Source: an uncultured Bacteroidota bacterium
GTDB taxonomy: Bacteria; Bacteroidota; Bacteroidia; Bacteroidales; VadinHA17
Length of the DNA stretch: 64,000 nucleotides
Assembly: GCA_903844815.1 (NCBI GenBank)
Contig: CAIMVD010000375.1
Coordinates: 8,918-72,917 of the forward strand
Direction of reading: 5' to 3'
Below are positions 6,901 through 40,316 of this stretch, piece by piece. Under the pieces are notes generated by a model. The model worked only from the letters and a program-made list of their open reading frames with translations, was not told the origin of the DNA and did no database searches. The translations under genes and the position numbers were made by a program. Numbering within the stretch: the first letter of the stretch is position 1; the number at the start of each line of letters is the position of its first letter.

Positions 6901-9900
6901 TTGCACCTCCAATAACCTGAGTTGTTGTTCCTGCAAAAATGACAGTCGATGCCGGACTAAATCCCAATCCGCTGTTAAACTCACCTGTGTTATAACGCTC
7001 CATTGTTCCGAGTATTATCAGGCTGCTCCTGTTTACACTGTTGTCAAGCAAAGGCCCGTCTATTACAAGCCGTTTGCATACTGTCAGCAGCTTGTTGGGA
7101 AGTATTCTTGTTCCTGTTCCCGTAAACAAAATGTTGGGTACGCTGTTGAAAAGAGATTCAATTATTGTATACGTTCCTGATCCTCCGTATTCAATTGTTC
7201 CGTTACCAGAACAATCCGTGAAGGCAGAATAGTTACCACCCGGGAGATTTCCTCCTATCAGGTATATCGTTCCATCGCCGTCGACAACACCAAGGTTGTG
7301 ACTGAAATTCGAGGGGTCAACTACAAGCCTGTTATTAATAGTAGTTCCCAGTGAATAGATATTATTGATGTCTGTTGTAACTATATGATTAATTATAACA
7401 TTTGCGCCATTCGGGCCGCCGTCAGGGCAGGGAGGCGATGATCCGACAGGAATCCAAACTGTTTTATCCGACCAGTTGCCGTCTTTGATCGTAGTATAAG
7501 CAGGAACCTCTTCAGGTATTGCAGATCCCTTCCCGGCTGTATAATCACCGGTCAGGTTACTGACAGCTGAATTATTAAAGAGTATCTGGTGTGAAGTCTC
7601 ATTGACATTATCTGTTGCAGGTCCGGCAGGTGCTTCATACCAATAACTTCCCGGAAGGGCAAGTTTAGCGGCCACATAATCGGATTCAGTCCCTACTACA
7701 TCACCTGCCAGGTATTGCAACTGGATATCGCCATAGAATCCTGTTATGCCCGAACTTCTTATCTGCCAGTAATAGTTCAGTGCATTAAGCGGATCGGTTA
7801 TGCTTGAGTGCCTGCTATTTATTGGATTAACACCTATTGATCCTACTTCGTCACTTGCCAGAATATTGAAGCTGGCAGGTGTGTATTTACCTGATACGCC
7901 AATAGGGAAAACAAACGTCTGCGGCTCTGCTGTGAAGAATTTCACGAGGCCCAATCCGCTGATTACGCCATCGGACTTAATCATCTTCGAAACACTGAAT
8001 GGAGTACCTGTAATAAAACTCTTAGGACTGAGGGTCAATTGGAATTTGCCAATATCCAGAACGCCCAGGTTCATTGCCAGATCGCCCTGCAGACTTATGT
8101 CGCTGTTTACCCTTGCTCCGAATCCGTTATTTAGTTCAAGACGGCCAAATGCTCCCGAACCTGTTACCTGCTGCTGAGCAGAAGCACCGGAAAGGGATAT
8201 CCCGCTGCTTCCGGTATTAATATCGGTGCAGGAACCCTCATTTACCAGGTTGCCAAGGAGAGTTACCCTGTTCGAGCCAAGAACAAAGTTTCCCTGGCTG
8301 ACGGTAAGATTCCGGTTAACAGTGAAACTACCCTCCGTTGTCAGTGAATTGACCGGGGAGACGTTCAGATCAAAGAAGTTGGTTACCGAAGTTCCCTTTA
8401 TCGACTGGAATCCTCCGTTGAAAGTTGTAAGATTCGTACCGTAATTATATGATCCATAGTTTGTAAGATCCCCTTTGAGTGAGACATTCAGATTATTCGA
8501 ATTGAAGATACTGTTTATATTGCTCAGGGTAAGAGAACCATCGAGTACCAGAGGGCTAACCATCAGATTAACTGTAGCATCGCGTGTGGCAGCAGCTGTT
8601 TTACCAGTAATTGTAATATTATTCAGATTAATATTAGCATCGAGCGAATAGGTCTGAGGGGCATCAACTACAGCTTCACCTGCCGGAACGGGAGTGAAGA
8701 AAATTGTTCCTCCAGTGACCAGAGAGCTTGCAGGTCGCAGGTAAAGGTCACCGAAAGTTGTTCCTCCTCCCCTTACGATGGTTAGTGTACCTCCCGACAT
8801 ATTGAATGAGCTACCTGGGTTAAGTATTTCAAGCTTCGCCTTTGCAGGAAGATAATTATTACCGTTAATGATAACATTACCAGCCGACTGGATGTAGCTA
8901 AGAACTCCATTTGTGGTTGCTGCAGGCCTCCTGATCTGGCCGTTTACCATCAGTTTCCCTCCTCTTACTTCAATAGAAGAAGCGCCGCTACCGGTGTATT
9001 CAATGTCATTGTCATTGGCATTTGTACCTGATACCGCCCCGACATAAACGTTTCCGTTAACCAGGGTAAGCTTGCCTCCCAGGATCAGGTCGCCGTTATT
9101 ATTCGCCGAATTTCCTATCAGAATGTTTCTGTTGCCCGTATTGGACGGAAGATCGACATAGAGCCCTGCAGTTGCCGGAATTGTGAACGGAGTAATGGTT
9201 GATATTGTAAAATCCGTGCCAGGATTGACTCTCGTATACTTCAGTGTACCATTTTGAAGGGTCAGCCAGTTGTCAGCAGGAGTTGTAATTACACCAGACA
9301 TGTCAATAGTAAGAGTTGATGCCTGAGATGATCCCTTGTTAACGGTCAGCTTACTGAAGATGATAGAAGGATTGCCTCCGGTATTTGTAACAGAGGCGTT
9401 ATTCGGCCCGAAGAATGTTACCGGGATTACAGAGAAATCGCACTGCGCAATTATCTGATAGGCTGGAGGATTCAACAAACCATTCGAATTATTTATCAGA
9501 CTTCCGCCAATTGAGATCTGCTGATTAAAGGAATTGGAATTAAAAGTTCCTATTCCGGAGAAGGTCCCTACTACAAGGTTACCAAATACAACTATATCCT
9601 CGGCAAGAGTACCATTTCCTACCCAGATTAGCGAACCGCCCTGCATCAGAAGGTCTCCTTTTATTGTAATTGTTTTTGCAATAACTGTGCTCGGTATTGT
9701 AGGATAGTCATTTTCCCAGGTAGGACAGAACCAGGAGTCTGTATTCTGGCCCCTGATAACGAGGTTACCATAAATAGTAAGATTATGATTGGGGAAAATA
9801 ATGTTTGATCCTCCCAATGGAGAAAGAATCAGATTACCATAAGTCATTACCCCGTTCGGCAGCCAGTAGGTTGTGCCGTACTCTGTATTAGTTGAATAAA

Positions 9901-17512: not shown

Positions 17513-17646
17513 AATTTTAAGTTTGTATATCAATTTAGTTGACTTAAGCTACAATGGTTTGTAATTCATGTAGTTTTATATTTCTGATTTACAACATCCT
17601 TACAAGATAATAAAATTTAAGTATAAATTATCAAAAGATGGCTAAT

Positions 17647-39464: not shown

Positions 39465-39472
39465 CAAATATA
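39465..39472 (-). promoter_or_regulatory. Candidate -7 box (TATATTTG) for ugd
   Basis: The plus strand reads caaatata, which is TATATTTG on the minus strand, 31 nt upstream of the ugd ATG. It matches the Bacteroidota TAnnTTTG consensus. No clear -33 element was seen. Confidence 0.35.
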
Positions 39473-39558
39473 TAAAATGTAAATTTCACACCCTGATATT
39501 AATAGAAGTTATTTGCATTTTTACTTTCTTTCGATTTGTTTTTAAGTAAAATTCTAAA

Positions 39559-39752
39559 TCAATGGCGTTTAGTTAAGGAATATTATTACAAACATGAAAA
39601 GAATATTTTACCACAGGGACCACTCTGCTATTCTTGTGTTTTTACCCCCCAACCCCCCAAGGGGGGTGTTCTTAAATCCCCCCTTGGGGGGCAGGGGGGT
39701 AAGAATATGGGAGTAAGAAACTGATTACCCGGGCTTAACTAAACGACATTGA
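39559..39752. repeat. ~194-bp MITE-like / long-hairpin element with a C6/G6 palindromic core
   Basis: Terminal inverted repeats tcaatggcgtttagttaag (39559..39577) and cttaactaaacgacattga (39734..39752) match at 18/19 positions. The core (39645..39699) is C6-AA-C6-AA-G6-tgttcttaaat-C6-TT-G6-CA-G6, a near-perfect dyad with about 20 possible base pairs, 18 of them G:C. Confidence 0.55.
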
Positions 39753-40316
39753 ATCCTAAATTATTAAATATTACGGTAATAAAACATAAGATACCGCAAA
39801 TACCGAAAGCAAATAATATCAGATCCCGATTCCCCTGATTAACAATTACTGGCAGAGTAGGAACTCATGCAAAACGAGGAGAAGTACAGCAAACCTGTAA
39901 GGACGGAACTATTATTAGGGTCGGAATTAGTTCGGGCATTCAACTGAACTGCGGTACAAAACGTGCGAAAGTACTACTGACAAGGTGAGCTGATTCATTC
40001 TTCCCTTGCATAAAGCTCAAATGTCATGATTATTAAACTAATAGTATAATTACTTTATTTATTGCAGGTTATTATGCAGCTCCTCAAATAGTTTGTACTG
40101 TCTTATTAAGAATATATTTTCTTATCTTAGGCACCTAATATGGCAATGTTGTTTTGGGCGGAAAATTGACAGGGGAAAGATCAGGTGAAAAGAAACCACC
40201 GTCTCCTGTGTGCAGGGGGCATCATGGAAGACAGTATGTGATTTGTTCTTAAAAAGACTGAATACCAACGATTTATTACCAGGAACATAAAAAAGTTTGA
40301 CAGAATAATCAAGAAC

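Follow-up and report, generated by a model that had tools for sequence, protein, structure and literature searches.

What is a long hairpin of G and C blocks doing in the AT-rich spacer between ugd and a hybrid kinase gene, two divergently transcribed neighbours in a polysaccharide cluster? This question is raised by a stretch of 64,000 nucleotides (hereafter, the window) from an uncultured Bacteroidota bacterium (GTDB lineage Bacteria; Bacteroidota; Bacteroidia; Bacteroidales; VadinHA17), which corresponds to positions 8,918 to 72,917 of contig CAIMVD010000375.1 (C375) in a draft genome of 6.37 Mb and 411 contigs (GCA_903844815.1). A preliminary description of this element had offered several answers, ranging from a non-autonomous transposable element, or a repeat akin to repetitive extragenic palindromes (REP), to a structured DNA or RNA element that could influence the flanking genes. 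The answer proposed here is that it is, in all likelihood, a MITE (miniature inverted-repeat transposable element) of IS4 family type, which would be moved in trans by a related lineage of insertion sequences (IS). Both mobile-element suggestions have held up, since the element is multi-copy, with terminal inverted repeats (TIR), a fixed 10-bp duplication and matching autonomous IS, while the C6/G6 centre is made of two inverted copies of a hairpin unit that is found alone across the genus. In what follows, G numbers designate genomes (G000 being the host), C numbers contigs and L numbers loci, whereas IS-B, IS-C and IS-D are names coined here.

At the locus itself, an inverted-repeat search recovered terminal arms at 39559-39577 and 39734-39752 (95% match) and, between them, the central arms of the C6/G6 block palindrome at 39639-39666 and 39678-39705, which are 28 nt long, 89% complementary and 11 nt apart. 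When judged against dinucleotide shuffles, which expect 0.00 occurrences of the C6AAC6AAG6 core and 0.02 of the terminal repeat, both are exceptional, and in the window each is present only at this element, once per strand. The predicted stem is equally robust, with folding energies of -96.5 kcal/mol for the element region as RNA (z = -8.5) and -32.4 kcal/mol for the core as DNA (z = -6.4), neither of which is equalled by any shuffle. Precise boundaries were set by aligning 45 full-length genomic copies, which places the element proper at 39560-39751, i.e. 192 bp running from CAATGGCGTTTAGTTAAG to CTTAACTAAACGACATTG. Its TIR are CAATGGCGTTTAGTTAAG and CAATGTCGTTTAGTTAAG, which are conserved across copies, match at 17/18 positions and measure 18 bp rather than the 19 bp (18/19) initially described, the 19th pair being the first base of a 10-bp target-site duplication.

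Evidence that this is mobile DNA comes from the rest of the host genome. Rather than being single-copy, the element was found by BLAST in the draft as 45 full-length copies (77-100% identical to the window copy) and about 45 further partial copies that stop at contig ends. The motifs of its left and right arms occur 78 and 72 times, respectively, and the copy number is put at about 60-80 because contig-end overlaps count some copies twice. Identity to the consensus reaches 96% or more in some 24 copies and drops to 81-90% in older ones. Target-site duplications, which the preliminary description had proposed to look for, are 10 bp long and perfect in 21 of the 37 scorable copies, with one mismatch in 9 more (i.e. 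at most one mismatch in 30/37). The duplicated 10 bp have a G+C content of 15%, compared to 41% for the genome, and the target profile is characterised by a T at position -5 (24/28 copies) and an A at the mirror position. All copies are intergenic, none lies inside an open reading frame (ORF) of at least 100 aa, and the orientation of neighbouring genes shows no bias.

Copies differ in ways that tell something of their history. The 11-nt loop between the central arms is found in a majority orientation (72 copies) or flipped (18 copies, including that in the window), and flipped copies share other diagnostic changes and therefore form one subfamily, for which the simplest account is a single inversion between the G6/C6 arms that was then copied by transposition. 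The ORF that spans much of the element, already suspected to be nothing but translated repeat, is exactly this: it is open because the C/G core happens to be stop-free, and the frame through the core is not conserved, extending over <30 to about 70 codons depending on the copy, since indels in the C/G runs shift it. Outside of the host, the whole MITE is rare. It was detected in three of 212 genus genomes (G000, G271 and G290), with the G271 copy 83% identical, and was absent from 38 of the 40 relatives first searched, though the core matched in eight. A related MITE is also present in a metagenome-assembled genome (MAG) known as 'Bacteroidota bacterium ELA747', and an exact 30-mer of the MITE left arm has no match in species-representative genomes.

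Which transposase might move such an element? Elements of the IS4 family are bounded by 5'-CA ends and duplicate about 10 bp of their target (PMC2266710). Taken over 20 nt (CAATGGCGTTTAGTTAAG followed by GA), the MITE's left end is identical at 16/20 positions to the end TAATGCCGATCAGTTAAGGA of IS4 in E. coli K-12 (NC_000913), in which the two IS4 ends are TAATGCCGATCAGTTAAGG and TAATGCCAGTCAGTTAAGC and the duplication is 12 bp. Much closer matches exist in the genus, and the search for a related autonomous IS led to three that share the ends of the MITE. The first is a complete IS of 1479 bp (G271:C128:1989-3467), with a left end CAATGTCGTTTAGTTAAG that is identical to the reverse complement of the MITE right TIR (18/18) and matches the left TIR at 17/18 positions, and a duplication ATATATAAAT. 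Its single ORF encodes a transposase of 451 aa that scores 160.8 bits with NF033592 (the NCBIfam model for the IS4 family, cut-off 115 bits), matches DDE_Tnp_1 in Pfam (PF01609) and aligns in BLASTP with InsG of E. coli IS4 (E = 5e-13, 21% identity). The C-terminus of this protein matches host fragments belonging to the two other IS, i.e. IS-C (81-84%) and IS-B (66%), whose ends are identical to that of the MITE at 17/18 and 16/18 positions, respectively. The IS-B end CAATGTCGTTGACTTAAG or the IS-C end CAATGTCGTTTAGTTAAC is found at 22 contig ends of the host draft. All copies of a given IS-B end agree at every position (100%) over 80-140 nt, and perfect 10-bp duplications allow nine IS-B copies to be paired. 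The DNA next to IS-B and IS-C (18% G+C, with a T at -5 in 20/22) has the target profile of the MITE. Since IS-B and IS-C share both the 10-bp duplications and the target profile of the MITE, they are most likely its mobilisers in trans. This IS lineage is present in all three MITE-bearing genomes, and its transposase gene in 12 of the 212 genus genomes.

A plausible scenario for how the MITE spreads can be outlined as follows. The element consists of two 18-bp IS4-type ends and short private arms, which enclose a captured inverted pair of G/C-block units. A transposase of the IS-B/IS-C lineage would (i) bind the shared ends, (ii) excise the MITE and (iii) paste it into AT-rich intergenic DNA, where a 10-bp staggered cut would generate the 10-bp duplication. 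Such cut-and-paste chemistry is established for the IS4 family (Tn5/Tn10). A recent burst of this activity would have produced the about 60-80 host copies, one of which landed ~125 bp upstream of ugd. The C6/G6 palindrome, which does not belong to the IS ends, would be cargo rather than a site for the transposase, originating from a genus-wide family of hairpin doublets, the full-length form of which would bracket a DUF559 nuclease gene. It also turns the MITE into a long fold-back and a landing site for a second, hairpin-targeting IS of the IS4 family.

Several points weigh against this scenario. The interiors of IS-B and IS-C are absent from the host assembly, which is why their transposase is known there only by its last 31-39 residues. 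The likeness between MITE and IS is limited to about 18-22 bp per end, and the pairing therefore rests on ends, duplication length and target profile; for the same reason, the MITE is not a simple deletion derivative of these IS. Finally, neither an empty-site allele of the MITE nor an insertion polymorphism was found, with constructs of joined flanks matching only artefacts when compared to the host's own assembly and related species being wholly devoid of the element. A second contig that encodes an identical Ugd protein is uninformative about the empty site, as it begins 155 bp upstream of ugd and thus ~30 bp inside the MITE, a break that fits a repeat-induced one. Searches for further relatives of the mobilisers returned little: an exact 32-mer of IS-B end A had no match in JGI metagenome contigs, and almost no IS-B-like transposase was found in the genus with IS-D as a query.

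Three observations on this group of IS deserve to be recorded. First, the window contains, at 17531-17574, a 44-nt remnant that is 93% identical to IS-B end B (..TTAGTTGACTTAAGCTACAATGGTTTGTAATTCATGTAG), next to an islet with tRNA-Val and a Doc toxin. Second, the host has a true IS4-like element, IS-D (G000:C200:96690-98063, which continues on C219), with the end TAATGGCGCTAACTTAAT, also present at several other contig ends, and a transposase with 29% identity to InsG of E. coli (E = 1e-24). IS-D interrupts a gene that reads like the N-terminal part of a prolyl-oligopeptidase type protein. Third, there is no ATG, GTG or TTG in the first 60 codons of the G271 transposase ORF (L135, G271:C128, pos 189-1541), nor in the first 44 codons of the transposase ORF of a distinct IS on contig C197 (G000:C197:14648-16006). 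These two ORFs share ..TATAGGGGG..ATTAAYAAGAAA (INKK), which suggests that translation may be initiated at ATT.

The IS on C197 (14505-16210), whose transposase belongs to the IS4 family (NF033592, 195 bits), was at first taken for the parent of the MITE, which would then be an internal-deletion derivative. There were reasons for this: the outer 66-105 bp of the C197 IS region are identical to the MITE arms, these arms lie on either side of the transposase gene at the host junctions that are assembled (three left, on C197, C144 and C145, and two right, on C159 and C158), and the interior is flanked by short direct repeats, CCCTTGGGGGCA and CCCTGGGGGGCA. This reading was dropped on account of the IS's own inner ends, a perfect 17 bp (CATAGCCGTCAAGCTAA), and of its hairpin-targeted homologues. 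Indeed, its homologues from other families of the order are bounded by this sequence on both sides and lack MITE arms, the nested IS ends being CATAGCCGTCA(A/G)GCTAA. In G122, every readable junction among six copies is in the loop of a CCCGGGG-N5-CCCCGGG hairpin, with 11-bp duplications in the three copies for which both junctions can be read. In the host, all five junctions are in the CCCCCC-NN-GGGGGG of MITE copies and the flanking CCC(T)TGGGGG repeats behave as the IS's own duplication. These repeats match at 10/10 positions between C145 left and C158 right, while C145 and C159 share the outer MITE duplication (9/10). Moreover, the C197 transposase is only marginally similar to the lineage with MITE-like ends (E = 0.002). 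With its own inner ends, arm-free homologues and hairpin-loop junctions, the C197 IS is an insertion within MITE copies, where it occupies the palindrome of at least three, and not their parent, which makes an origin of the MITE by internal deletion of this IS highly improbable. There is a precedent for such a preference, since REP-targeting IS are known in five families, including ISRm22 of the IS4 family (PMC1525189). As a side note, C197 (14459-14640) and C381 (1-300) share a 46-nt flank next to a MITE with and without the nested IS, respectively, and their arms differ by 3 substitutions and 1 indel. The sampled population would appear to be polymorphic, at strain level, for the nested IS, although the assembly could also be at fault.

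If the ends of the MITE point to the IS4 family, where does its core come from? The palindrome is an inverted pair of the unit TTTACCCCCC-AA-CCCCCC-AA-GGGGGG, i.e. a C6/G6 hairpin with an extra C-run, which in the host also stands alone with its TTTTTA head (C161:25187 and C175:12454), with 7 of 154 host units lying outside MITE copies. A loose pattern of this unit, searched in 81 genus genomes, was found in 61, with counts from 1 to about 290 and a reversed control of about zero. In G018 and others, the unit is seen singly, as inverted doublets and in arrays that repeat every ~140 bp. Many MAGs of uncultured Bacteroidales contain one exact 23-mer, ACCCCCCTACCCCCCAAGGGGGG, and several of these MAGs have the same conserved 28-nt spacer. 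The 23-mer also occurs in G+C-rich phyla (Streptomyces, Rhodoferax, Phycisphaerales, Nesterenkonia, Terriglobales and other MAGs; L029, L045, L064, L066, L067, L083, L088), after AG-rich simple repeats and before an ORF-like stretch, where it is probably translated as ..PPYPPKGG.. within a protein of phage or plasmid type and has no relation to the MITE. In addition, C/G-block hairpins are found within tandem intergenic arrays of composite units of ~70-300 bp, at G018:C5:94240-95200 (L025), G018:C5:69800-70800 (L026), G018:C1:34800-35900 (L027) and L043 (a Paludibacter MAG).

The core units have a REP-like character, as they are short, G/C-rich, abundant, intergenic and often organised in inverted doublets across the genus. 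Could the whole element then be a REPIN or a bacterial interspersed mosaic element (BIME), in which a REP-associated tyrosine transposase (RAYT) would mobilise a REP doublet and the outer inverted repeats would be incidental? Its centre, an inverted pair of short G/C palindromes, is what a REPIN would look like, and 25 of 26 genus genomes contain Y1_Tnp genes. However, the 18-bp ends of the element are well defined and its duplication is strictly 10 bp, whereas single-strand transposition of the RAYT/IS200 type is not known to yield such duplications. A RAYT link of the units themselves was rejected, since none of 19 Y1_Tnp loci in six genomes has a C/G-block unit within 1.5 kb; conversely, about 55 unit hits were counted in G226, which lacks a Y1 gene. 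REPs carry a conserved GTAG or CGTC tag at one end (PMC3733652), which direct reading of the units did not find, as they begin with TTACCCC and end with GGGG(G)TAA. All this makes a RAYT-moved doublet an extremely improbable explanation for the element. The Y1_Tnp genes of G000 are flanked by other palindromes: three of them (RAYT or IS200-like; C318:26714-27058, C300:26579-26920 and C257:11136-11474) have different palindromes of their own, e.g. GCCCCGTAGGGGCG and GCCCTGAAAGGGC, and therefore reveal further REP-type families in the host genome.

A different gene is found next to the units. Among 28 loci with DUF559 (PF04480) genes in eight relatives, six have the gene bracketed by inverted units, namely L164 (G193:C91), L174 (G014:C23), L159, L168 and L183 (all in G018) and L161 (G194). 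The bracketed form is TACCCCTAAATCCCCCAAGGGGGACTT - gene - TTTAAGCCCCCCTTGGGGGGTTTGGGGGT, and in the common doublets a short spacer is enclosed by these two ends, identically oriented, which suggests that they may be miniature derivatives of the DUF559 cassette. This association with DUF559 genes is an enrichment and an architectural match, not a proof of mobility. The inner flank of a DUF559-bracketing unit is also similar to the 11-nt loop found in the MITE. It is conceivable, and we put it forward tentatively, that C/G-block units are the ends of an undescribed family of mobile cassettes of uncultured Bacteroidales with a Vsr-like nuclease gene (DUF559), of which doublets and arrays would be non-autonomous miniatures, REPIN-like and RAYT-free. 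If true, the MITE would be a chimera of three layers, i.e. a DUF559-type doublet, the IS4-type MITE that captured it and the hairpin-specific IS4-family IS recruited in turn, and capture would have given the doublet a second route of spread.

What remains to be considered is whether the copy in the window affects its neighbours. It is located upstream of both, at 125 bp from the start codon of ugd (39434) and at 565 bp from the kinase ORF (40317), and the two genes diverge from it, so that, as noted from the start, it is not a terminator for either. In the spacer, the only Bacteroidetes-type -7 box, TATATTTG (39465-39472, minus strand), lies between the MITE and ugd, of which it may be the promoter, and no such box occurs in the MITE consensus. 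The possibility that this copy is a selected cis-element for polysaccharide genes (a structured RNA, an insulator or terminator, or a switch based on a G-quadruplex (G4) or i-motif) owes its appeal to the very stable hairpin, its location in a divergent control region and the three G6 runs on each strand. It is nonetheless very unlikely, as (i) near-identical sequences are found at about 70 unrelated intergenic sites, with no orientation bias of neighbouring genes, (ii) no U-tract follows the long hairpin on either strand (TAAGAA on the plus strand, TAAAAAC on the minus strand), and a terminator scan, which flags only a 5-bp mini-stem, gives no canonical intrinsic terminator, (iii) Rfam returned only sub-threshold miRNA-like hairpin hits for the element (at the E-value threshold) and nothing for 11 related loci (at gathering score), (iv) the MITE is upstream of the box next to ugd, and contains none, and (v) the canonical G4 motif, in which four runs of three or more G on one strand are separated by loops not exceeding 7 nt, is absent, the plus strand having runs G6, G6, G6 and GGG separated by 19, 2 and 9 nt. 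Non-canonical G4 folding is conceivable, but with three G6 runs and a weak GGG, a very stable competing hairpin and a MITE devoid of a -7 box, the sequence lends little support to a G4, i-motif or regulatory effect. Without a U-tract or an Rfam match, and with the box outside the MITE, little or no effect on either gene is to be expected.

Table 1. Features of the element between ugd and the hybrid kinase gene (positions in the window), and location of the hairpin-targeting IS discussed in the text.
Feature	Position	Strand	Basis or remark
Left target-site duplication aattctaaat	39550..39559		flanks agree at 9/10 positions at the window copy
MITE, flipped-loop subfamily, 93.8% identical to the family consensus	39560..39751	+	alignment of copies
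Left terminal inverted repeat CAATGGCGTTTAGTTAAG, IS4-type, 5'-CA	39560..39577	+	inverted-repeat search, copies
Left subterminal arm	39578..39638	+	beyond GGAAT, unrelated to IS ends; similarity to IS-B end A ends at ~22 nt
Hairpin unit 1 TTTTTACCCCCCAACCCCCCAAGGGGGG, A-type unit reversed	39639..39666	+	also stand-alone elsewhere
11-nt loop TGTTCTTAAAT, reverse complement of the majority loop ATTTAAGAACA	39667..39677	+	
Hairpin unit 2 CCCCCCTTGGGGGGCAGGGGGGTAAGAA, with mini-palindrome CCCCCC-TT-GGGGGG	39678..39705	+	
Right subterminal arm	39706..39733	+	patchy likeness to IS-B end B (GTAATC, AGTTTCTTA)
Right terminal inverted repeat CTTAACTAAACGACATTG	39734..39751	+	reverse complement is CAATGTCGTTTAGTTAAG
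Right target-site duplication aatcctaaat	39752..39761		comparison of flanks
62-codon TTG ORF, not a gene	39536..39724	+	frame not conserved among copies
Bacteroidetes-type -7 box TATATTTG	39465..39472	-	between the MITE and the ugd ATG (39434)
Homologues of the nested IS in G122	L109, L116, L119-L122		
Pieces of the nested IS in G000	C197:14505-16210, C144:22848-23032, C145:9941-10184, C159:1-206, C158:5870-6136		

What does this mean beyond one intergenic spacer? For the locus itself, very little, since the element is selfish DNA and the polysaccharide cluster can be explained without a special regulator. Its importance is elsewhere. Together with its partner IS, the MITE is responsible for at least about 70 contig ends of the draft (~45 MITE pieces and 22 IS ends) and yields spurious ORFs that burden annotation. 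For the biology of mobile elements, it offers a repeat family riding in another, the product of which is exploited as a landing pad by a hairpin-targeting IS. The hairpin units, which bracket DUF559 genes and occur throughout an uncultured genus, are, in turn, a lead to a repeat or cassette family. In the literature searched, no published description was found of the MITE, of the hairpin units or of hairpin-ended DUF559 cassettes. The MITE represents a new family within a familiar class of elements, in the genome of an uncultured member of the Bacteroidales; less ordinary are its core, which is borrowed from a genus-wide, DUF559-bracketing doublet family, and the attraction that this core exerts on a hairpin-specific IS.

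How does it compare with known systems? Bacterial MITEs that derive from IS or match them include MIC231 of IS231, in the IS4 family (PMC2266710), MITEAba12 (PMC6382973) and the MITEs of Porphyromonas gingivalis (PMC4596501). Like these, the element is short (192 bp, i.e. <~500), non-coding and capable of folding back, shares its TIR with IS, has a duplication of fixed length and is present in many intergenic copies. Unlike them, it shares only ~18-22 bp per end with its IS, and is hence not a simple deletion derivative, its interior is a captured hairpin doublet of another repeat family and its host is an uncultured environmental Bacteroidales. When compared to IS4 of E. coli and the IS4 and IS4Sa subgroups (PMC2266710), the resemblance lies in an end that agrees with the IS4 right end at 16/20 positions and starts with 5'-(C/T)A, a duplication close to one turn of the helix (10 bp for the MITE and 12 bp for K-12 IS4) and a matching IS that scores above the NF033592 cut-off and aligns to InsG. 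The differences are a transposase that is only 21% identical to InsG, the AT-rich target, with a T at -5 and an A at the mirror position, and a G271 transposase ORF whose first 60 codons include no ATG, GTG or TTG, so that ATT may be its start.

As for the core, it is reminiscent of REP, BIME and REPIN (PMC3116915, PMC3333891, PMC2817692), with which it shares an inverted doublet of G/C palindromes that is abundant, intergenic and genus-wide. It differs from them in that its units have no GTAG/CGTC tag and no RAYT link (0/19 loci), bracket DUF559 genes instead and, in the host, are nearly all inside the MITE (7/154 outside). Finally, the nested C197 IS and its G122 homologue behave like the REP-targeting IS, i.e. 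IS1397 and ISKpn1 (IS3 family), IS621, ISPpu9 and ISPpu10 (IS110 family) and ISRm22 (IS4 family) (PMC1525189, PMC12288879), in that they insert in the loops of G/C palindromes and duplicate the loop region. Apart from the phylum, what sets them apart is that the palindromes available in this host are borne by the MITE, so that the IS ends up nested in another mobile element.

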